Below are positions 30,159-64,000 of a stretch of 64,000 nt of DNA, piece by piece. The DNA comes from Minisyncoccia bacterium (lineage in GTDB: Bacteria; Patescibacteriota; Minisyncoccia; Phycocordibacterales; CAIZLB01): assembly GCA_041752275.1 (NCBI GenBank), contig JBGSHK010000009.1:19156-83155 (forward strand), read 5' to 3'. A program made the position numbers and the translations under genes. The notes under the pieces are model-generated. The model worked only from the letters and a program-made list of their open reading frames with translations. It had not been told where the DNA came from and made no database searches. The first letter of the stretch is position 1. The number at the start of each line of letters is the position of its first letter.

Positions 30159-31724
30159 ATGTCAAATCTTACAAAAAAACAAAAAGAAACTTTCGACTAT
30201 ATAACTAAGTATATAGATAAAAATAGTGTATCCCCTACTATGGAAGAGATTAAGAAAGGTCTTAAACTCAGTGCTGTTTCTACCGTACATGAACACATTC
30301 AATCCCTCAAGGAAAAAGGTTTTCTTTCTAAGACCAAAAGTCTTTCACCTAAAAAAGAAATAAAATCCATACTGAGCATTCCTATCATAGGTACCATAGC
30401 AGCTGGTTATCCAATTGAAGCTATAGAAAATGGCACTGATAATGTTTCAGTTGTAAACAGCTCTATAAAAAATCCAAAAGATTATTATGCCCTTAAAGTT
30501 ACTGGAGAAAGTATGATTGATGAAGGTATATTTGATGGAGATATAGTAGTGATAAAAAAACAATCTGTTGCTGAAAACGGTCAAACTGTTGTAGCTATTA
30601 TAGATAATAACGAAGCAACTCTTAAAAAGATATATAGAGATAAAAACAGATTTCGCCTTGAACCCAGAAATCAAACAATGCTTCCGTTTTATAGAAAAGA
30701 AGTTGAGATAAGAGGTGTAGTTGTTCAAGTTATAAGAAATATAAATCAAGAGGAAAAGAAGATTACAAAAACTAAAACAAAACATGGTTTTGATACCATA
30801 GACTTATTTGCAGGAGTTGGTGGTATACGTTTAGGTTTCGAAAATGCTGGGTTTAAAACAGTATTTGCAAATGATTTTGAAGCTAAATGTAAAGACACAT
30901 ACGATTTAAACTTTAAAGATTCAAAACTTGTAGTAGAAGATATTAGAAAAGTTGGAATAGATGATTTACCAAATTTTGATTTCTTGCTAGGAGGCTTCCC
31001 TTGCCAGGCATTTTCTATAGCTGGTCATAGACAAGGCTTCAAGGATGAGAAGGGTCGTGGTAACCTGTTTTTTGACGTTGCGAGAATTATAGAAGCAAGA
31101 AAACCAGAAGGATTTTTATTAGAAAATGTTAAAAATCTTAAAAGCCATGACGAAGGTAGAACATTTAAAATAATCATTAAAACTCTTGAAGATCTTGGAT
31201 ATCATATAAAATCAAAAGTTTTAAATAGTATGGAATATGGAAACATTCCACAAAACAGAGAGCGTATATATATTGTCGGTTTTAAAAATAAAGATTATTA
31301 TGACAAATTTGAATTCCCTGCTCCTGTAAAATTAACAGTTAAGATTACAGATTTATTAGAAAAGAATGTTGATCAAAAATATTATTATAATGACAAACCT
31401 TTATATGAAAGAATAAAGGATTCTGTAAAAGACATAGGAAAAGTATATCAGTGGCGTAGACAATACGTAAGAGAAAACAAAAGTGGAGTATGCCCTACAT
31501 TAACAGCCAATATGGGTATGGGTGGACACAATGTTCCAATAATAAAAGATAAGAAGGGTATACGAAAATTAACACCAACTGAATGTGCAAGGATACAAGG
31601 TTTTCCTATTGATTATAAGTTACCTAAGATAGCTGATTCTGCGTTGTATAAGCAGTTTGGAAACTCAGTGAGCGTGCCTGTTATTAAAGCTGTTGCTAAG
31701 CAGATGATGAAGGTGATGAACTAG
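30159..31724 (+). CDS. Fusion protein: full-length LexA-like repressor (wHTH plus S24 autopeptidase) fused in frame to a C5 cytosine DNA methyltransferase
   Basis: N-terminus LTKKQKETFDYITKYIDKNSVSPTMEEIKKGLKLSAVSTVHEHIQSLKEKGFL matches the LexA DNA-binding domain. The LexA protease catalytic region is present: GESMIDEGIFDGDIVVI...NGQTVVAIIDNNEATLKKIYR (Ser in GESM, Lys in TLKK) ending ...VIRNI. A Lys/Thr-rich linker NQEEKKITKTKTK follows. MTase motifs are then I DLFAGVGG, IV GFPCQAFS, VI LLENVKNL and X QFGNSVSVPV. Confidence 0.8.
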   Translation: MSNLTKKQKETFDYITKYIDKNSVSPTMEEIKKGLKLSAVSTVHEHIQSLKEKGFLSKTKSLSPKKEIKSILSIPIIGTIAAGYPIEAIENGTDNVSVVNSSIKNPKDYYALKVTGESMIDEGIFDGDIVVIKKQSVAENGQTVVAIIDNNEATLKKIYRDKNRFRLEPRNQTMLPFYRKEVEIRGVVVQVIRNINQEEKKITKTKTKHGFDTIDLFAGVGGIRLGFENAGFKTVFANDFEAKCKDTYDLNFKDSKLVVEDIRKVGIDDLPNFDFLLGGFPCQAFSIAGHRQGFKDEKGRGNLFFDVARIIEARKPEGFLLENVKNLKSHDEGRTFKIIIKTLEDLGYHIKSKVLNSMEYGNIPQNRERIYIVGFKNKDYYDKFEFPAPVKLTVKITDLLEKNVDQKYYYNDKPLYERIKDSVKDIGKVYQWRRQYVRENKSGVCPTLTANMGMGGHNVPIIKDKKGIRKLTPTECARIQGFPIDYKLPKIADSALYKQFGNSVSVPVIKAVAKQMMKVMN

Positions 31725-31726
31725 AA

Positions 31727-32296
31727 TTACCAAAGCTTAACTTTTGAAGCTAGTGGTTTTATATTATGTTTTATTATTATATCTTTTTTTATAGAAAATC
31801 TAGGTCTTCTTTTATCACCTTGCTGATCTTTCATTGCTTGTGATTTATTAACTTTATTTCCATAAATTAAATCATTTGGTATTAAATAAATATCAAATTT
31901 ACCATCAACTTTACCTTCGTTATAAAAATCAAGAAAATATAAATCATCCCATTTAGATTTTGGGCCAAATGAAGTTAAATCTTCTTCTACGCTACAAGCT
32001 TTTATTTGCTCAGCTCTCATTTTTTTAACATTAACTGTATCAAATGAAGTATTTGATAACTTTTTAGCTTTTAAAAGTCTAGCTGATGAACCTTCAGACC
32101 ATATACAAAAAGCTGCTTCTGATAAACCTTCGGGAAAATTAGGTTCTCTGGCTTTATAATCTCTCATACCCATTTTTAAATCTCTCCATTTATCAAACAT
32201 AAACTTCCAGGTTTTACCATCAGATTTTATAAACTCCATAACACTTAAAACACAGTCTTGGTTAAATATTTTAGCTTCTATTGTGTTTATTCGCAT
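31727..32296 (-). CDS. Putative type II restriction endonuclease partner of the adjacent methyltransferase
   Basis: 189-aa ORF tail-to-tail with the MTase, stops 3 bp apart. Possible PD-(D/E)xK-like segment WDDLYFLDFYNEGK. Assignment is by context only. Confidence 0.3.
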   Translation of the reverse strand: MRINTIEAKIFNQDCVLSVMEFIKSDGKTWKFMFDKWRDLKMGMRDYKAREPNFPEGLSEAAFCIWSEGSSARLLKAKKLSNTSFDTVNVKKMRAEQIKACSVEEDLTSFGPKSKWDDLYFLDFYNEGKVDGKFDIYLIPNDLIYGNKVNKSQAMKDQQGDKRRPRFSIKKDIIIKHNIKPLASKVKLW

Positions 32297-36531: not shown

Positions 36532-37218
36532 ATGAAAACAAATAGCATAACAAAATTTAACAAACTGATAGACAACATACCAGACAAGCCTAAGGAGCTT
36601 TTCTATGAGGGTAACATTGATTTACTGGGTGGAAATCACCTTTATCTATGCATTGTAGGTCCAAGAAAAGCTACGCCATATGGTATGCAAGCCACTGAGC
36701 ATATTATGGAGTTTTTAAAAGACTTCAACGTAGTTACAGTTTCCGGTGCCGCTTATGGCATAGATGGATTAGTTCATACTCTGTCAATAAAGCATGGTAT
36801 CAAAACCATATGTATACCTGGTAGTGGTATAAGTGACGACTTTTTCTATCCAAGGGTACACCTTGATCTTAAACATGAGATCTTGGATCACGGAGGACTT
36901 ATCATAAATGAGTTTGAACCTGAGACGCGTGCCAGTCCTTGGACTTTTCCAGTTCGCAATCGTCTCATGGCTGGAATGTCACATATGACTATAGTTGTAG
37001 AAGCGGAAGAAAGGTCGGGTACTCTTATAACCGCAAACTTGGCAGCTGACTATAACAGGGACGTTTTAGCTGTGCCTGGAAACATTTTCTCAAGAAATTC
37101 ACAGGGTACAAATGAGCTTATAGATAAGGGAGCGAAGATTTTTGTAAATCTTGAAAGTTTAAGAGAGATGTTGATGCAACTTGGTGTGGTTTATGAGGTG
37201 GTTGTGCATAAGGACTGA
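36532..37218 (+). CDS. dprA: DNA processing protein DprA (Smf), Rossmann domain only
   Basis: LCIVGPRKATPYG...VSGAAYGIDGLVH...GTLITANLAADYNRDVLAVPG; 228 aa short form. Confidence 0.85.
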   Translation: MKTNSITKFNKLIDNIPDKPKELFYEGNIDLLGGNHLYLCIVGPRKATPYGMQATEHIMEFLKDFNVVTVSGAAYGIDGLVHTLSIKHGIKTICIPGSGISDDFFYPRVHLDLKHEILDHGGLIINEFEPETRASPWTFPVRNRLMAGMSHMTIVVEAEERSGTLITANLAADYNRDVLAVPGNIFSRNSQGTNELIDKGAKIFVNLESLREMLMQLGVVYEVVVHKD

Positions 37219-44743: not shown

Positions 44744-45193
44744 ATGATTCACAAAATGATTAAGTTTATACAAAAAAATGCAATATATATTATACTGACT
44801 CAGGCAATTGTAGCATTACTTGGTAGTCTATACTTTTCTGACATAGAAGGTTATGCACCATGTGTTTTATGCTGGTGGCAGAGAATATTTATGTACCCTA
44901 TTATTATCATAATAATTATAGCTACATTAAAAAAAGAAACTAGAATATATCAATATGTATTACCTATGGCCATATTGGGTATAACAGTATCTGTATATCA
45001 CAACTTGTTATATACAGGTATTATAAAAAATGAAGAGTTTTGCACTGGAGGCATATCTTGTACAAGTAAATATGTTGAATATTTTGGATTCATAACGATA
45101 CCATTTTTAGCATTTTTAGGTTTTGCTATCATAATCACATTATCAATAATTAGTAGAAATTATATAAATAAACAAAATAAAGAAAATAAATAA
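44744..45193 (+). CDS. dsbB: Disulfide bond formation protein B (BdbC-like)
   Basis: APCVLCWWQR motif (compare B. subtilis BdbC PCVLCWYQR), a second Cys pair CTGGISC, four TM helices. Confidence 0.75.
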   Translation: MIHKMIKFIQKNAIYIILTQAIVALLGSLYFSDIEGYAPCVLCWWQRIFMYPIIIIIIIATLKKETRIYQYVLPMAILGITVSVYHNLLYTGIIKNEEFCTGGISCTSKYVEYFGFITIPFLAFLGFAIIITLSIISRNYINKQNKENK

Positions 45194-45197
45194 ACAC

Positions 45198-45920
45198 ATG
45201 ACAACAGAAACAAAAATTATAGGAGGTATATCATTGTTAACGTTATTAATAATAGTGGGTGGTATATTTTTATTTAATTCAAATAAAACAAATAATATAC
45301 CGGGTGACTATTCCAGATATATAAACACAGGACTAAGTTTAGATATATCAAAATTATCAAGACCTGAAAATCCTAAAATAACAGGTGCTGCAAAAAATGC
45401 ATCGTCTACAGAATTATCTGCAGCATCATCAAGTAAAATACTTATAACAGAGTTTCTTGACTACGAATGTCCTGCATGTGCCGTAAATGGAGAAATGTTA
45501 ACAAAACAACTTTTAGAAACTTATGGTGATCGTGTTATTATTACAAGAAAAATATTTCCAGTACACAATCAAGGTTCTATAGACTCAGCAAGACTAGTAC
45601 TTGCTTCACAAATATTTGGTGGTGATATTTATGAAAAAGTTCATGCAAAGTTTTTTGAAACACTTGCACAATGGTCTATATTAAGTCGTGACGATAGAAC
45701 TGAATTTTTTAAGAAAATTATTGTAGACTTAGGTGTTGATTATGACAAGCTTTTAGTTGAATCACAAGACAAAAAATACGATGAGCAAATAGCAAAAGAT
45801 AGGCAAGATGCTTTAGATCTAGAAGTAAAAGCTACACCAACTTTTATTATAGGAAATCATACACGTATCACAGGAGGTTTACCTTTAGCTGAGTTTGTAA
45901 AATATATTGACAGTAATTAG
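45198..45920 (+). CDS. Thiol-disulfide oxidoreductase, DsbA/BdbD-like (thioredoxin fold)
   Basis: N-terminal TM anchor, CPAC active site (LDYECPACAV), DsbA-like length. Confidence 0.7.
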   Translation: MTTETKIIGGISLLTLLIIVGGIFLFNSNKTNNIPGDYSRYINTGLSLDISKLSRPENPKITGAAKNASSTELSAASSSKILITEFLDYECPACAVNGEMLTKQLLETYGDRVIITRKIFPVHNQGSIDSARLVLASQIFGGDIYEKVHAKFFETLAQWSILSRDDRTEFFKKIIVDLGVDYDKLLVESQDKKYDEQIAKDRQDALDLEVKATPTFIIGNHTRITGGLPLAEFVKYIDSN

Positions 45921-48879: not shown

Positions 48880-49440
48880 ACAAATGGGTTGTCCCACTTA
48901 TCCGAATCATGTAGATGATTCGGATTTATGTTTTATAAGATTAATTACCTTACTTTCAATTTTGTTAAAATCTTGTTTTGAGATATATCCTATAAACAAA
49001 TACAATCTTTTACTGTCTAGAACTCTTAGTTGCGAAATTATTGCAGACTGTTCAACATCCTTAAGTAATATTTTTATATAATACTTATTATCCTTATTTT
49101 TAGTACTCATAGGTATACCCCAGAATATGTAATTGGAAAATTTTTTAAATACGAGCACAGGTCGGTGGAAATACTCACCTTTACCATTTTGCTCGAATCC
49201 TACGTTCTCACCCATAAAGCACCAGTATACTTGTCCTTCGTTTATAATGAGGTCATTTCTTGGGGTTTTATCAATAATTATCTTTGTTAGTATCCAATCT
49301 ATAAAATGTTTTATCATTCATATATAGTAAAACAAAGCACATAAATTTCTCATAAAGATAAAATAAATTTTCACCGAGGAAATGATAAAAAACTGACCTT
49401 GGAATTAACCTTAGTCAGCTTTTTTATTTTAGATTTTATA
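48880..49440. repeat. Direct repeat copy A (~0.55 kb) containing a MazF-like gene and its upstream region
   Basis: Shares ~80% identity over the ORF with 52455-53020, and near-identity over ~100 bp of upstream non-coding sequence (ataaagataaaataaattttcaccgaggaaatgataaaaaactgaccttggaattaaccttagtcagctttt). Confidence 0.8.
48907..49317 (-). CDS. MazF/PemK/EndoA-like endoribonuclease toxin homolog (paralog A), no obvious antitoxin
   Basis: [30 protein letters not shown] parallels EndoA [40 protein letters not shown] parallels DSVILLEQIRTIDKQRL. ~25-aa N-terminal extension. Confidence 0.65.
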   Translation of the reverse strand: [136 protein letters not shown]

Positions 49441-58341: not shown

Positions 58342-58824
58342 TTATCTAGTCACTATGATCTCTTGATCTGTATCAACTTCACTTCTAGCAACTACACTTA
58401 GCCTTCCATCTTCAGCAACTCTTAACTGATAACCTGTATCATAGTCATCTTCATTAACGTATTTAGCTGTTTCAGACTTTGGATCATAAGGTAGTTTTGG
58501 TAAATAGTCAGGAACTAAACATTCAGCTATATCAAAACTACTACCCTCTTCACCTGTTCTTATGGTAAGTGCTGACGCAGTTAGATTTCTTATTGAACCG
58601 TTACAAAAAAATTTACCCTCATGATCTGCTATGTTTTGACCTATTGCGTTTAACAATGTATTAACATTTGCAATTCTTTGAGAGTCTCTTGCTTGTTTAA
58701 ACTGACGACTAGGATTTACAGCTACCAATACAACAGTTGCCAAAATACCTATAATACCTATAACAACAAGTATTTCTATAAGTGTAAATCCTTTTTGATT
58801 TTTTATTTGATTTTGATTTTTCAT
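58342..58824 (-). CDS. Type IV pilin / pseudopilin (prepilin N-terminal methylation motif)
   Basis: KGFTLIEILVVIGIIGILATVV (G|F cleavage site, Glu+5, hydrophobic helix). Confidence 0.8.
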   Translation of the reverse strand: MKNQNQIKNQKGFTLIEILVVIGIIGILATVVLVAVNPSRQFKQARDSQRIANVNTLLNAIGQNIADHEGKFFCNGSIRNLTASALTIRTGEEGSSFDIAECLVPDYLPKLPYDPKSETAKYVNEDDYDTGYQLRVAEDGRLSVVARSEVDTDQEIIVTR

Positions 58825-58879: not shown

Positions 58880-59296
58880 TTAAATTAAATTGAAAGATTT
58901 AATAAATTTAACAAATCCTTTTTCAAATATATATTCATAGGCAAAATCATCTATTATAAAGAAAATACCCTTAATGCTCTCATTTTCAAAATACAGCCGT
59001 ATGGAATAAACTTTACACAAATAATTGTCTTTATAGTATAGATTTCGATAGAAAATATACTCATTATTAATAAAATTTATATTATATTTAGCTTGAATAA
59101 TATTATTTATAAAAGCATCGGCACATAATATGTTCTCATTTAGAATTAATCTATTTTCGATAAAATCATTTTTTATATTTATATATTCAAAAACCCTTTC
59201 GGAACTTAAAGAAATCCAAGTTAAAAAAGTTAATGATATTCCTAATATAAAAAATAATGATATAAATCCGTTTTTTAGGTTGTTTTTATTTTTCAT
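58880..59296 (-). CDS. Hypothetical protein, possibly a degenerate pilin-like protein
   Basis: N-terminus KNGFISLFFILGISLTFLTWISL is weakly prepilin-like and lacks Glu+5. Confidence 0.3.
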   Translation of the reverse strand: MKNKNNLKNGFISLFFILGISLTFLTWISLSSERVFEYINIKNDFIENRLILNENILCADAFINNIIQAKYNINFINNEYIFYRNLYYKDNYLCKVYSIRLYFENESIKGIFFIIDDFAYEYIFEKGFVKFIKSFNLI

Positions 59297-60027: not shown

Positions 60028-61071
60028 ATGAGTGCAGATCCAGATGTTTTAAGAGAAATGTATAAGGCAGATATGATAAGAGGAGAATTCTATAAATGGC
60101 TATTATTCCTCTTGTATCACACAGTGGTTTATGGAGGAATATGGTTATTAACCATAACATTCATAAGCCCAGCCTTTACAACGGAGTGGATTATCGGATT
60201 AAATTGGTTAAGTATCGGATTAAATTGGCTACGTAATACAATCATAGTCATAGCTCAAGTGACACTCTTAGGAGTTTTTACTCATTCAATCTTGTCATGT
60301 TTTTCAGCGAAAAAACTTACCAAGACACAAATGGGTCAATGGTCTTTATCTGAATGGATGCCGACATGGGGCAGAAATCAGAAGAACTCATGGTATGGTC
60401 TTTTCTTAGGACTACCTGATTGGCTAGTAAAAGTACAAGCCATTGAATCTGTATCAACAGTCATCACCGACAAAAAAGAGATACAGGTGGAGGAAGCTGG
60501 AAACACAGATGGGCGTAAGTTTGCTGCTGTTTTTGAGTTTTCTTTTCAATACAATGTGATGGATACCTTAGAACACATAAGGAGACCCAATTCAGACAAG
60601 GACTTAGTAAACCTAGTTATCACTTATTTGACAGAATGGTTAAATGACAGCAATCACAATTATGAAAACATTCTAAGACTGAAAGCTAAAAAAGTGGAAA
60701 TTCAAGAATGGATTATTGACCAGCTTTTAGTTTCAATTTCTATGTTTGGTGATGAAATCATTAATTTCAGAATTATTGACATTGAGGTCCCTCAAATTCA
60801 AATTGATCAACAAAACAGAGACGCAGCTGCATTGGCTGCTCAAAAAGCTGTGGATGAGAGGGAGAGACTAAATATTGAAAATCAAGTCAAAAAAATGTTA
60901 GATTTTGGTAAAAACAGAAAAGAAATAATGGCAGAACTTAGTATAGACGAAGCTGCTTTCAACAATATTTTTGAACAAATTGAGAGAGTAGAAGGTAGAA
61001 CTAGATCAAATTTGAACAGGAACGAAGGAAGAGGTCGTCCACCTTTATTTGGTGGAGGTGGCCCAGACTAG
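60028..61071 (+). CDS. Membrane protein with possible SPFH/band-7-like C-terminal region
   Basis: Two N-terminal TM helices and an in-frame 21-bp tandem repeat (IGLNWLS/IGLNWLR at 60193-60234). C-terminus ...NFRIIDIEVPQIQIDQQNRDAAALAAQKAVDERERLNIENQ resembles the SPFH coiled region, and the protein ends Gly/Arg-rich. Confidence 0.3.
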   Translation: MSADPDVLREMYKADMIRGEFYKWLLFLLYHTVVYGGIWLLTITFISPAFTTEWIIGLNWLSIGLNWLRNTIIVIAQVTLLGVFTHSILSCFSAKKLTKTQMGQWSLSEWMPTWGRNQKNSWYGLFLGLPDWLVKVQAIESVSTVITDKKEIQVEEAGNTDGRKFAAVFEFSFQYNVMDTLEHIRRPNSDKDLVNLVITYLTEWLNDSNHNYENILRLKAKKVEIQEWIIDQLLVSISMFGDEIINFRIIDIEVPQIQIDQQNRDAAALAAQKAVDERERLNIENQVKKMLDFGKNRKEIMAELSIDEAAFNNIFEQIERVEGRTRSNLNRNEGRGRPPLFGGGGPD

Positions 61072-61190: not shown

Positions 61191-61673
61191 ATGATAAAAA
61201 CACTTGTTATTGTAGCTGTGTCCGTAATTGGTTTATTTGTGTTTGGAGCTAAGCAATGCTCATCAGACTCAAATAATCAAAAGAAAACCATAGTGGTTAA
61301 AGAAATTCAAACCCCTGCTCCACAACCAAATCCCGGTTGGAAAAAAATAGGTATTGAAAATGGATACACTATGTATGAACCTTCAAACCAAGACTTTACT
61401 ACCGAATGGTTTTGCGTTCAGGACTGGAATTCTACTTATGCTATAAGAGATTGCATTATGCAATTCAAAAAGCAAAACGGAGATATTGTCTCTTTTAAGT
61501 ATAATTGCGATACACGTGAATGTTTTTTGGAGACATCACTAGGATCTGGCATATTCGCAACGGAACCATGGACTGGCTATAATGAAACAGGTTTAATATC
61601 AACCCATGTTCGCTTTATAAAAACAACAGATCCATTCAATGTCACAGTTGGAGTCAAAAAACTCTCACCATAA
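61191..61673 (+). CDS. Hypothetical secreted protein or lipoprotein
   Basis: Signal peptide MIKTLVIVAVSVIGLFVFGAKQC, several Cys in the mature part. Confidence 0.4.
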   Translation: MIKTLVIVAVSVIGLFVFGAKQCSSDSNNQKKTIVVKEIQTPAPQPNPGWKKIGIENGYTMYEPSNQDFTTEWFCVQDWNSTYAIRDCIMQFKKQNGDIVSFKYNCDTRECFLETSLGSGIFATEPWTGYNETGLISTHVRFIKTTDPFNVTVGVKKLSP

Positions 61674-61719
61674 CAAATCAAATCGCCGCCATCTCTACCC
61701 AGAGCTTGGCGGTATTTTT

Positions 61720-62013
61720 CTACTCTATATTTAAAACTCTGTTAACATTGTCTCTACTTCTTTCACTCACAGGAACTGTATTTAATATAAATCTAAAAAA
61801 ACCAAAAACAGACACCATAACAAACATACCAAAAAGTCCCCAACCCATATGAAGTCTTCCCTCTTTCATCTTTGCCGGATCAGACTTTGATTTCCATATA
61901 TATTCAAAAACACCGTACATAAAATACAGTAAAGCTACTCCAAAAAGTAATGCTATTATTGGATTTATTATGATTTCATTTATTTTAGATAAAATACTAT
62001 AGGCTTTTTGCAT
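61720..62013 (-). CDS. Small two-TM membrane protein, paralog P1 (lacks signal peptide)
   Basis: Shares motif ...WGLFGMFVMVSVFGFF with P2 and P3 (WGIVxLFVMVSVWGLVN). Confidence 0.4.
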   Translation of the reverse strand: MQKAYSILSKINEIIINPIIALLFGVALLYFMYGVFEYIWKSKSDPAKMKEGRLHMGWGLFGMFVMVSVFGFFRFILNTVPVSERSRDNVNRVLNIE

Positions 62014-62050
62014 AAACTAATTATATAATGAATTTCAACTCGAAGCAAAA

Positions 62051-62081
62051 AATAGTTAATAAAAAACTAAGGCCGAAAACC
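62051..62081. terminator. Bidirectional intrinsic terminator
   Basis: aaaaaa-CTAAGG-ccgaaaa-CCTTAG-tttttt. Confidence 0.6.
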
Positions 62082-62114
62082 TTAGTTTTTTAATTTTACA
62101 AAATATGATGTGTA

Positions 62115-62507
62115 CTATCTTGCATTAGGAGTTGCAAAAGGAGCGTTTTGAACAGGCACAGCAGGTGCTGCAGGAATATTATCATTGTCTAGATTAAAAG
62201 TTCCTCTTAAAACGTTTACAAGTCCCCAAACAGATACCATAACAAAAAGCGCAACTATACCCCACAATATATAGTTTCCAGCTTCTTTTTTATCAGCAGC
62301 ATCACCTCCCCAGAAAAATCTTCTTACTATACCAAACAAAAACAAAACTAGAGCTGCAAGTATAAGTAGAGGTAAAGCTCTTCCTGATATATATATAAGC
62401 CAGTTAAGTATGCCGTCTATACTTCTTGCAGCGTTGTTAGCAGGGGCGTTGTTAGCAAACAAAACCATAGGTGATATTAGTATTAATAATGATAGTATTT
62501 TTTTCAT
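62115..62507 (-). CDS. Small secreted two-TM protein, paralog P2 (VirB2/TrbC-like pilin candidate)
   Basis: Signal peptide MKKILSLLILISPMVLFA, TM1 LPLLILAALVLFLFGIV, short charged loop, TM2 ILWGIVALFVMVSVWGLVNVL. Confidence 0.45.
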   Translation of the reverse strand: MKKILSLLILISPMVLFANNAPANNAARSIDGILNWLIYISGRALPLLILAALVLFLFGIVRRFFWGGDAADKKEAGNYILWGIVALFVMVSVWGLVNVLRGTFNLDNDNIPAAPAVPVQNAPFATPNAR

Positions 62508-62557
62508 TTTATTTAAATTATTTTATTTTTTTAATTTTTAATTATGTACTTATTATA

Positions 62558-63073
62558 CTACTTAAACTGAGGTATAATCAAGGGTCCATTACCAAATAAA
62601 GAAACTTTTAATATATTTACCAGTCCCCAAACTGATACCATAACAAACAAAGATACTATACCCCAGAACATAAACTTGCGAGCTTGTTCACGAGACTCTG
62701 GTTTTAAACCATCAACAAATGCAAGTTTAAATATTCCATATAAAAATACAACTAAAGATGCACCTAGTATTAGATATATAAGTTGATTCATAATACCTGC
62801 AAGCCAAGCAACTAAACCCGCAAGAGAAACTTTTGGTACACTACTGTTAGATGATGAAAATGGAGATGATCTGTTTAACTCAGATCCGGAAACACTGTTT
62901 TGACTACCTAAACCTGTACTTATAGCACCATCACCAGATCCAGGCATTATATTACCAGGATTTGTACCACTTTGATTTATATTACCAGGATTTGTCCCTC
63001 TAGGACTAATAGGATCAGCGGCAAAAGTAATTACACTTATCAACAGCAAGGTTATTACAAATATTTTTTTCAT
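62558..63073 (-). CDS. Small secreted two-TM protein, paralog P3 with repeat-containing Gly/Ser/Asn-rich variable region
   Basis: Signal peptide, internal GTNPGNI repeat (DNA repeat attaccaggatttgt at 62950 and 62980), TM1 LIYLILGASLVVFLYGIF, TM2 FWGIVSLFVMVSVWGLVNIL. Confidence 0.45.
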   Translation of the reverse strand: MKKIFVITLLLISVITFAADPISPRGTNPGNINQSGTNPGNIMPGSGDGAISTGLGSQNSVSGSELNRSSPFSSSNSSVPKVSLAGLVAWLAGIMNQLIYLILGASLVVFLYGIFKLAFVDGLKPESREQARKFMFWGIVSLFVMVSVWGLVNILKVSLFGNGPLIIPQFK

Positions 63074-63103
63074 ATTATTTTGATTTAAATTATTATTTAT
63101 ATA

Positions 63104-63451
63104 TTATTGTCCTTTAAAAACTTCTTTAACTGTGTCCCCTATACCTAAAGCCAAAACCTCAGCAGTAAGTATAAGTGCAGCACCTACCAAGCCCCACAGT
63201 AGTGCATTTCTAGCATCCCCTATTTTTTTCGGATCACCTTTGGCTGTAACAAACATAAAACCTGCATATATAAGATAAAGTGTTGTTATCATTATAACTA
63301 TGGTTTGTGCTATATCTAAAACATTCATAAAAACTGTTCTCAGGTCGGTACCTTCACCAAGAGGTGGTTTTATTGGTGCACTTACTGCATATATTGCAAC
63401 ACTTTTAAGTGAAGTTATTAAAGTTGCGATTATTATTGCTATTTTTTTCAT
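63104..63451 (-). CDS. Small secreted two-TM protein, paralog P4 (second subfamily)
   Basis: Signal peptide MKKIAIIIATLITSLKSVA, TM1 IVIMITTLYLIYAGFMFV, loop TAKGDPKK, TM2 LLWGLVGAALILTAEVLAL. This topology is typical of VirB2/TrbC pilins. Confidence 0.45.
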   Translation of the reverse strand: MKKIAIIIATLITSLKSVAIYAVSAPIKPPLGEGTDLRTVFMNVLDIAQTIVIMITTLYLIYAGFMFVTAKGDPKKIGDARNALLWGLVGAALILTAEVLALGIGDTVKEVFKGQ

Positions 63452-63476
63452 TTTTTTATTATTTTATATATTTATT

Positions 63477-63800
63477 CTATATAATAGTATCTCTTCTAAA
63501 TTCTTCAGAAACACCTAAGCTGTCTAACATAAACTCAACTATATAATAAGCTCCAACAAGTAATATCATACCTATAACTATGCCTATAAATATTTTTCTA
63601 ACTTGTGTTCTTGCATCAGCTGAACCTTGTTTAGTTACAAGTATATAGCCAGCATAAAAAATCATCAGAGTTGCAATAAAAAATCCTAGGAGAATCATGT
63701 TTTGAAGCAACTCGGTTATTATAGGATTTAAATCTGACCAACCACATCCTCCACCTAATTTGTCTTCAAAACATTTTGATAAACTTGAAAATAATTCCAT
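63477..63800 (-). CDS. Small two-TM protein, paralog P5 (second subfamily)
   Basis: MILLGFFIATLMIFYAGYILVTKQGSADARTQVRKIFIGIVIGMILLVGAYYIV has the same helix-loop-helix layout as P4. Confidence 0.4.
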   Translation of the reverse strand: MELFSSLSKCFEDKLGGGCGWSDLNPIITELLQNMILLGFFIATLMIFYAGYILVTKQGSADARTQVRKIFIGIVIGMILLVGAYYIVEFMLDSLGVSEEFRRDTII

Positions 63801-63817
63801 ATGTTTATAATATCATA

Positions 63818-64000
63818 TTATCTTATTAAATATAATTTATCTAATCTTTCGGATGCATCACTTATTGCATCAGAAAGATTTTGAGTACCATTTACTATAG
63901 AATTTACCATGTTTGAAAATATAATATCAGTAGAAGCAAAATCTGGATCTAACCATGTTTTTGCATATATAGCTGAATTGTTTATAACAGCCGCGTCAGC
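63818..64000 (-). CDS. 3' end of a gene continuing beyond the window (partial)
   Basis: Open frame on the minus strand from the window edge to a TAA at 63818-63820 (...TQNLSDAISDASERLDKLYLIR*); function unknown. Confidence 0.3.
   Translation of the reverse strand, partial: ADAAVINNSAIYAKTWLDPDFASTDIIFSNMVNSIVNGTQNLSDAISDASERLDKLYLIR

Follow-up and report, generated by a model that had tools for sequence, protein, structure and literature searches.

At one end of a 64,000-nucleotide stretch of DNA from a Minisyncoccia bacterium (contig JBGSHK010000009.1; the whole stretch is called the window below), five adjacent open reading frames (ORFs), P1-P5, form an array on the minus strand at 61720-63800. 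The encoded proteins, of 97, 130, 171, 115 and 107 aa, are assigned here to the VirB2-like pilins of type IV secretion systems (T4SS). The earlier note, made from the letters of the window, had described five consecutive minus-strand genes, and these ORFs were recovered at the same positions:

61720-62013, minus strand: P1, 97 aa; type-5 (T5) leaderless pilin-like hairpin protein, the most conserved of the five.
62115-62507, minus strand: P2, 130 aa; type-4 (T4) pilin with a predicted signal peptide, a hairpin and a Pro-rich disordered C-terminal tail (LDNDNIPAAPAVP...).
62558-63073, minus strand: P3, 171 aa; type-3 (T3) pilin with a predicted signal peptide, a Gly/Ser/Asn-rich variable segment of ~65 residues, a conserved hairpin and the C-terminal end ...IPQFK.
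63104-63451, minus strand: P4, 115 aa; type-2 (T2) pilin with a predicted signal peptide, a short linker and a hairpin with the loop motif YAGFMFVTAKGDP.
63477-63800, minus strand: P5, 107 aa; type-1 (T1) protein without a signal peptide, with an acidic N-terminal tail carrying a Cys pair, the first transmembrane (TM) helix, a basic loop and the second TM helix.

Hydropathy analysis showed, in each of P1-P5, two long hydrophobic segments with a short Lys/Arg-rich loop between them, which together make up a hydrophobic helix-loop-helix hairpin of ~70 residues; P2, P3 and P4 have an additional hydrophobic N-terminal leader. From hydropathy and sequence, P2-P4 are predicted to carry Sec-type cleavable signal peptides, and P1 and P5 to be leaderless. 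The ATG of P5 is preceded, five codons upstream, by an in-frame TGA, and therefore only P2-P4 are predicted to have a signal peptide. Of the layout that the earlier note ascribed to every member (signal peptide, variable segment, hairpin), the hairpin is present in all five, but the signal peptide is absent from P5 in view of this upstream TGA. The same note regarded P1 as having lost its signal peptide; P1 is indeed leaderless, but a recent loss is contradicted, because P1-type proteins have no leader in any lineage examined.

The five types keep stable signatures, namely the Cys pair of type 1, the long low-complexity N-terminal segment of type 3, the Pro-rich tail of type 4 and the invariable lack of a leader in type 5. 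Type-1 (P5-like) proteins have a signal peptide in distant lineages and are devoid of it in the clade of the window. Their Cys pair (C...GGCGW), located in the N-terminal tail (window positions 63700-63790), is kept across loci. Genes for DsbB-like and DsbA/thioredoxin-like proteins were found at 44744-45920, 18 kb from P5, the Cys-pair tail of P5-type proteins being presumably external.

A second helix containing ...FVMVSV(W/F)G... is common to P1-P3. Pairwise BLASTP identities within this group are 46% (P2-P3), 35% (P1-P3) and 34% (P1-P2), while P4 and P5 share 25% and identities between the groups are 17-30%; the proposed division into two subfamilies, P1-P3 and P4-P5, is thus borne out. 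Profile A1, built from database homologues of P4, and profile A2, built from database homologues of P2, align with a probability of 95.4% and E 1.8e-8 (hhalign), so that all five proteins belong to one family. AlphaFold2 models are in agreement with the hairpin layout: in P4 (mean predicted local confidence, pLDDT, 74.7) helices at 2-21, 37-69 and 74-113 correspond to a leader helix, followed by a linker and a long hairpin, and in P2 (pLDDT 78.8) helices are located at 2-17, 30-65 and 70-103, with the Pro-rich tail disordered.

The family is represented in Pfam by PF18895 ('T4SS_pilin', gathering score 26.6 bits). Scores above the cut-off were obtained for P4 (36.1 bits), P3 (33.4 bits) and P2 (30.8 bits), and scores below it for P5 (23.6 bits) and P1 (19.6 bits); the latter two are tied in by profiles, P5 with A1 (E 9.9e-8) and P1 with A2 (E 3.4e-19). 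All 62 homologues of P4 are annotated as PF18895, and 277 homologues were collected for P2. In alignment A3, which comprises 115 array members gathered from the window and 20 related loci, PF18895 is matched by 109. The family is very large: in a search of 1.84 billion proteins, profile A1 retrieved 20,029 cluster representatives (E<=1e-3). By these sequence assignments the locus is a VirB2-like 'T4SS_pilin' array. The reading of P1-P5 as VirB2/TrbC-like pilins is upheld: PF18895 is matched by all five, by three of them over the cut-off, and such arrays have been published for Patescibacteria (PMC12102498; PMC10633639). Their separation from type IV pilins of the G|FTLIE kind is likewise confirmed, and a type IV pilin identity was rejected, as no match to N_methyl (PF07963) was found in P1-P5 at E<=1.

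Two further families of conjugative proteins are matched by the array members. PF04956 (TrbC/VirB2) is matched by 29 of the 115 (E<0.001; best 1.9e-9). In the window, P5 gives the sole PF04956 match among P1-P5, at 22.4 bits, and no protein of the window reaches the gathering score of 27.9 bits. NF045849, the 'Mbov_0395 family pilin-like conjugal transfer protein' of Mycoplasma integrative and conjugative elements (ICEs), is matched by 84 of the 115 (E<0.001; best 1.4e-15); the scores of P1-P5, 16.5-22.1 bits, do not reach its curated cut-off of 40 bits and point to relatedness of the families without making P1-P5 members.

A scan of species-representative genomes yielded 22 related loci, in metagenome-assembled genomes labelled Nomurabacteria, Parcubacteria, Niyogibacteria, Staskawiczbacteria and 'uncultured Candidatus Saccharibacteria'. 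Nomurabacteria and Niyogibacteria belong to the class Paceibacteria (Table S1, PMC12102498), and the array is assigned, from its sequence relatives, to a chromosomal locus of this class of the Patescibacteria (candidate phyla radiation, CPR), near the Nomurabacteria and Parcubacteria genomes. The recurring arrangement consists of gyrA, sometimes a small methyltransferase gene, a gene for a solute-binding protein of the SBP_bac_1 family (SBP) and then 4-8 pilin genes. It was found in more than 20 species of Paceibacteria and, apart from L023, in all loci whose upstream sequence was long enough; it persists where SBP is 25-34% and gyrA 50-70% identical to the reference. The SBP gene precedes the array in the window, L002, L005-L022 and L024-L030; between it and the first pilin gene, 18 of 19 loci have a gap of -17 to +57 nt, and L018 has one of 387 nt.

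According to type-specific hidden Markov models, distant arrays retain the order T1(P5)-T2(P4)-T3(P3)-T4(P2)-T5(P1); the full series is found in L019 and L020, while L024 has an extra T4 and L025 and L026 are without T1. The gene order of L002 is that of the window, and its proteins are one-to-one orthologues with identities of 92% (P1), 82% (P2), 59% (P3, 192 aa in L002), 80% (P4) and 78% (P5). Together with the PF18895 matches of all five, this shows that P1-P5 are genuine genes and have not arisen as ORFs by chance. The ratios of nonsynonymous to synonymous substitution rates (Nei-Gojobori dN/dS) for this pair are 0.06 for P1, 0.17 for P2, 0.42 for P3, the highest of the five, 0.23 for P4 and 0.17 for P5, in comparison with 0.11 for SBP and 0.04 for gyrA. 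P1-P5 are under purifying selection between the window and L002. One-to-one orthologues in related species rule out recent tandem duplication. The tandem diversification proposed earlier is accordingly old but not ongoing, the five types being found one-to-one and in order across species. In Staskawiczbacteria (L023, 1268-5524), eight tandem pilin genes are present, all type-2-like and with no SBP directly upstream; this array looks like an amplification of the same type.

P3 is distinguished by its repeat region:

62939-62998, minus strand: duplicated GTNPGNI unit in P3, two tandem 30-nt units with 23/30 bases identical.

The duplicated unit with its 30-bp DNA repeat had been pointed out in the earlier note and was found again at 62998-62939; Tandem Repeats Finder also reports a repeat array, at 62947-62993. 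In orthologues of P3, the C-terminal 90-95 residues, which comprise the hairpin, are nearly invariant, and the mature N-terminal segment is 40-130 residues long and carries lineage-specific short tandem repeats (GTNPGNI x2, NSGTGS(N/D)F x4, TNFSGTG(P/S)D x8), with 2-8 copies at the equivalent position. This N-terminal region is variable and repeat-based between species, since the repeats of the orthologues differ. The closest variant, P0330 (168 aa, 94% identical), retains two copies of GTNPGNI; its differences from P3, a 3-residue deletion and some point changes, are confined to the first ~100 residues, before the hairpin. As for the expected variation of the Gly/Ser/Asn-rich repeat, the sequence does vary between species, but a change of GTNPGNI copy number between strains was not seen in the comparison of P3 with P0330. 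Judging from these alignments, variation in the array is restricted to the N-terminal repeat segment of P3, which is predicted to be exposed.

The array is preceded by the SBP gene and includes or adjoins two hairpins at the RNA level:

63818-64000, minus strand: 3' end (last 60 codons) of the SBP_bac_1 gene, encoding a 445-aa MalE-like solute-binding protein; the full gene is located at 3250-4587 of contig L001.
62060-62092, minus strand: intrinsic-terminator-like hairpin in the P2/P1 spacer, with an A-tract, a 9-bp G+C-containing stem and a U-tract.
61680-61717, minus strand: hairpin 3' of P1, weaker (-14.4 kcal/mol, z -2.3), in the convergent gap with the plus-strand gene ending at 61673.

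The window was extended by 4.4 kb with L001, a 5.8-kb Logan contig identical to it over an overlap of 1381 nt. The partial ORF at 63818-64000, put forward earlier as a possible part of an apparatus continuing past the window, proved to be the C-terminus of the SBP_bac_1 protein (Pfam SBP_bac_1, E 1.1e-10), upstream of which gyrA and then tsaD are found. The protein is weakly, or distantly, MalE-like and carries a membrane anchor at its N-terminus as well as a Gly/Ser linker. Since the stop codon of SBP is located 17 nt upstream of P5, SBP is likely the first gene of the operon.

The P5/P4, P4/P3 and P3/P2 spacers are unstructured, A+T-rich and 25-50 nt long, and RNA folding showed that the SBP/P5 spacer is unstructured too; with short gaps and unstructured spacers in the series SBP-P5-P4-P3-P2, P1-P5 appear to be co-transcribed with the SBP gene. 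The sole structured spacer within the array is that between P2 and P1. Its hairpin (62092-62060) folds at -15.4 kcal/mol with z -3.8, and none of 200 shuffled sequences (0/200) was as stable. The earlier statement that individual intrinsic terminators separate several members is thus incorrect, one internal hairpin being present and the other three spacers unstructured. A simple consensus terminator scan gave nothing on the minus strand and missed 62060-62092, which was found by direct folding. The hairpin at 61680-61717 is the probable end of the transcription unit. In most close relatives (L002, L005, L009, L011 and others) the spacer before the type-5 gene folds strongly, at -13 to -61 kcal/mol. 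A conserved terminator or attenuator before P1, as predicted from these foldings, suggests that the expression of P1 is set apart from that of the rest of the array.

Fusions of pilin domains are frequent in the family. In 47 of the top 150 matches of the representative search, a single polypeptide contains 2-8 pilin domains. Both P0183, which has eight domains in 820 aa, and P0184, which has seven in 606 aa, run without interruption, with up to 16 TM helices. P0184 is encoded at 10001-11821 of L030 within a gyrA-methyltransferase-SBP-pilin array, behind which a Band_7 gene is found on the other strand, and the last ORF of L022 (10926-11498) is a fusion of types 4 and 5. The fusions are topologically consistent, since each hairpin would have both ends outside the membrane, and by Rosetta-stone logic they suggest that array members are adjacent in one assembly.

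The rest of the window is an ordinary chromosome of a small genome, with dnaK/grpE/dnaJ, rpoA, rpsD, several aminoacyl-tRNA synthetase genes, topA, dprA, parB, dnaB and recR. Two plus-strand genes converge on the array:

60028-61071, plus strand: X347, a multi-TM protein with a weak SPFH/Band_7 match (E 0.0087).
61191-61673, plus strand: X160, a small secreted protein.

Both are kept in position in ~11 related species. They are fast-evolving, X347 being 49% and X160 37-40% identical to the L002 orthologues, versus 78-95% for flanking genes; a Band_7 protein is encoded in the equivalent position in L030. It is uncertain whether X347 and X160 are part of the pilin system.

A type IV pilin had been reported nearby at 58342-58824, together with dprA; the former is confirmed by N_methyl (PF07963, 37.5 bits), but dprA is located at 36532-37218, ~25 kb away. 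Directly upstream of this type IV pilin gene (minus strand), a 138-aa ORF (58880-59296, minus strand) with a pseudopilin-like N-terminus (KNGFISLFFILGISL) and no Pfam match was found, and the pair is conserved in relatives. Elsewhere in the window, a 521-aa fusion of a LexA DNA-binding domain, an S24 peptidase and a C-5 cytosine DNA methyltransferase is encoded at 30159-32296, adjoined on the opposite strand by a gene for a Bsp6I-type restriction endonuclease, which is an unusual restriction-modification architecture. A gene for a PemK/MazF-type toxin is located at 48907-49317 (minus strand), between asnB and dnaK.

Taken together, the five VirB2-like hairpins are probably non-redundant heteromeric subunits, assembled by a T4SS encoded elsewhere into a host-contacting pilus-like structure. 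By the positive-inside rule and by analogy with VirB2 and TraA, the proteins would be inserted into the cytoplasmic membrane by Sec/YidC, their two ends facing outwards and the basic loop facing the cytoplasm. Extraction and polymerisation would follow, probably by the monoderm-type T4SS of the lineage, encoded elsewhere in the genome, and the product would be an extracellular pilus-like filament or conduit contacting the host cell. Within it, the five types may serve as non-redundant subunits of one heteromeric structure, e.g., major, minor and adaptor subunits. A heteromeric assembly is favoured over interchangeable variants because the types are one-to-one, ordered and under purifying selection, only the N-terminus of P3 varies, and fusions occur. 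The pilus function itself is inferred by analogy.

A number of observations weigh against this interpretation. P1 and P5 are below the Pfam threshold of PF18895 and have no signal peptides. No VirB2, TraA or TrbC chain was found when profiles A1 and A2 were searched against the sequences of the PDB, the matches (KCNQ channels, cytochrome oxidase and FliL, all E>0.1) being noise. With Foldseek, the P4 model gave no match. The P2 model did have a conjugation pilus as its top match, 8dfu of Aeropyrum pernix, but at a non-significant E of 0.58 (probability 0.90); these fold searches do not decide, because a two-helix hairpin is generic and too simple. Chains in which 7-8 hairpins are covalently joined fit poorly into a classical helical filament of the VirB2 type. 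A 2025 review of T4SS treats pilus formation in Patescibacteria as an intriguing possibility that is not demonstrated (PMC12857230). Among all ORFs of at least 150 aa in the 64-kb window, covered by a Pfam scan, and in the 4.4-kb extension, out of a contig of 88.5 kb, there is no VirB4, VirB6, VirD4 or PrgI, and no T4SS gene occurs within ~10 kb of related arrays wherever that much flank is covered, so that gene linkage in this lineage gives no support for coupling to a T4SS. PilB is absent from the same ORFs, extension and covered flanks of related arrays. Pilus or secretion genes (VirB4/VirB6/VirD4, PilB) had been named as genes to look for beyond position 64000, where the extension contains SBP_bac_1, gyrA and tsaD instead. 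Large ORFs flanking related arrays, considered as candidates for VirB4, proved to encode SecA, ABC exporters, a GT2 glycosyltransferase, RNase J, SBP_bac_5 and surface Ig/PKD proteins.

On the other hand, the linkage of pilins to virB4 is not universal, since VirB2-like pilins were reported in 1,948 VirB4-positive assemblies and near virB4 in only 1,135 of them (PMC12102498). The Niyogibacteria assembly that supplied L022 is VirB4-positive (Table S1, PMC12102498); consequently, the SBP-pilin operon and a T4SS encoded elsewhere are present together in at least one genome.

The missing linkage bears most on the main rival explanation, in which the array is independent of any T4SS: five hairpins (10 TM helices) and the tethered SBP_bac_1 would form a heteromeric channel or uptake device and no pilus, capturing a host-derived sugar or other solute with a fold borrowed from VirB2. 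In this lineage the array is never beside virB4, yet SBP_bac_1 comes directly before it wherever the upstream sequence is long enough, L023 excepted; no pilus has been seen. Near SBP, neither an ABC permease nor an ATPase partner was found in the 4.4-kb extension or in L002; fused polytopic hairpins with up to 16 TM helices are typical of side-by-side subunits of membrane complexes, and a gene of the SPFH/Band_7-like membrane-scaffold kind is a conserved neighbour. However, the proteins are homologous to conjugative-pilin families, TrbC/VirB2 and the transfer proteins of Mycoplasma ICEs, and PF18895 proteins are encoded within the T4SS cluster in Saccharibacteria. Moreover, the operon encodes no energising component, and adjacency of SBP alone shows no interaction with the pilins. 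On balance, this explanation appears rather unlikely.

A related idea, offered tentatively and thought equally doubtful, is that the hairpins of Paceibacteria have been uncoupled from a T4SS locus and make up a dedicated five-subunit envelope structure with a co-transcribed, membrane-tethered sugar-type SBP. It might take one of two forms, either a heteropolymeric pilus with SBP at its base or tip as a receptor for a host ligand, or a membrane conduit for the uptake of host-derived compounds; the poly-pilin fusions, with up to eight hairpins, would then be covalent versions of the assembly.

Interchangeable variant pilins, i.e., alternative major subunits for antigenic or host-range variation, would be in line with the low identity of the paralogues, with the hypervariable repeat-bearing segment of P3, with amplification of one type in some lineages (e.g., the eight type-2 genes of L023) and with the role in adaptation to different hosts put forward in PMC12102498. 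Nevertheless, the types are one-to-one across species and ordered, with 59-92% identity and dN/dS <0.5; they differ systematically in architecture (leader or none, Cys pair, Pro-rich tail, long N-terminal segment), and the genes appear to be co-transcribed and not switched singly. This makes variant pilins improbable.

That P1-P5 are unrelated two-TM proteins (holins, VirB3/PrgI-like inner-membrane subunits or generic membrane peptides) which match Pfam through hydrophobic composition is very improbable: P1 and P5 are leaderless like VirB3/PrgI and below the Pfam cut-off, the fold is generic, and the related small proteins CDS13 and CDS15 of Mycoplasma ICEs have been called VirB3-like (PMC12857230), but none of the five has a PHROG or holin match (E<=0.01), the context of the window is one of housekeeping genes and not of phage, no PrgI (PF12666) or VirB3 match was obtained at E<=1, by which a VirB3/PrgI identity is rejected on sequence though not on structure, three proteins exceed the Pfam cut-off and all five are joined by profile-profile homology.

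The kind of feature described here is already known, because tandem divergent VirB2-like arrays have been published for Patescibacteria (PMC12102498; PMC10633639). A T4SS with its pilin array is essential in the one genetically tractable species, and the present locus adds no new class. It is a clean and widely conserved example from Paceibacteria, in which the array stands apart from virB4, is tied to SBP and consists of five fixed, probably non-redundant types. Much of the uncultivated diversity of bacteria belongs to Patescibacteria, which live on host cells to which they are attached, and Paceibacteria is their largest class. The features of the locus constrain models of how such cells contact or feed on their hosts, and favour heteromeric assembly over variant switching. 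Apparently unreported are the linkage of SBP_bac_1 and gyrA to the array in Paceibacteria, the fixed composition of five types, the poly-pilin fusions and the similarity to pilin-like proteins of Mycoplasma ICEs.

Among known systems, the closest are the arrays of other Patescibacteria. In Southlakia epibionticum, several pilins are predicted within the T4SS cluster SEML1_0006-0019, and they are essential for epibiotic growth (Wang et al. 2023, PMC10633639); PF18895 matches were shown for SEML1_0014-0016 and SEML1_0019 is annotated as 'pilin', within the six-gene array SEML1_0014-0019 (PMC10633639). Quinonero-Coronel et al. (2025) used PF04956, PF18895 and other profiles to search 3,035 genomes and reported 441 VirB2 arrays of 2-11 genes, for which a role in adapting to different hosts was suggested (PMC12102498). 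With five genes at 17-46% identity, the array of the window falls under the published definition (at least two tandem divergent pilin genes). The arrays have in common PF18895, the phylum, small hairpins and tandem divergent paralogues, with identities of 17-46% here and a mean of 25% and a maximum of 54% there. In contrast, the S. epibionticum array is located inside a T4SS cluster with VirB4, PrgI and VirB6, whereas here no T4SS gene is present in the window or within ~10 kb in relatives. The array of the window comes after the gene for a membrane-anchored SBP_bac_1 beside gyrA, whereas no solute-binding protein occurs among the supplementary-table matches for SEML1_0008-0019 of S. epibionticum; the terms 'solute-binding' and 'gyrA' are absent from the main text of PMC12102498. 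Published arrays are most abundant in Microgenomatia and Saccharimonadia (PMC12102498), unlike the array described here, which is found in Paceibacteria.

VirB2 of Agrobacterium, TrbC of RP4 and TraA of F resemble the array members in the signal peptide, predicted here for P2-P4, the two-helix hydrophobic hairpin and the basic loop, and PF04956 is matched by 29 of the 115 relatives. The differences are that the host here is monoderm, that none of the five proteins exceeds the PF04956 cut-off, and that no sequence match to solved pilins was obtained. In addition, the single major pilin gives way to five types, of which two are leaderless, there is no linked VirB machinery, and the pilus of the array is a predicted one.

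The Mycoplasma ICE proteins of NF045849 are similar in that they, too, are small hairpins and belong to a conjugation system of a monoderm (MPF-FATA-type), but they are encoded by single genes in the ICE beside VirB4/VirD4 homologues, whereas the genes described here form a chromosomal array. The similarity to NF045849, seen at the level of sequence profiles, suggests a monoderm relative of these pilins, and it bears on the statement that MPF-FATA systems lack VirB2 homologues (PMC12102498). Finally, the VirB2 paralogues of the T4SS of Bartonella and Anaplasma are likewise present in several divergent tandem copies in host-associated bacteria. Those copies are thought to be alternative variants, involved in immune evasion or host range, whereas the types of the array described here are orthologously conserved and look non-redundant.

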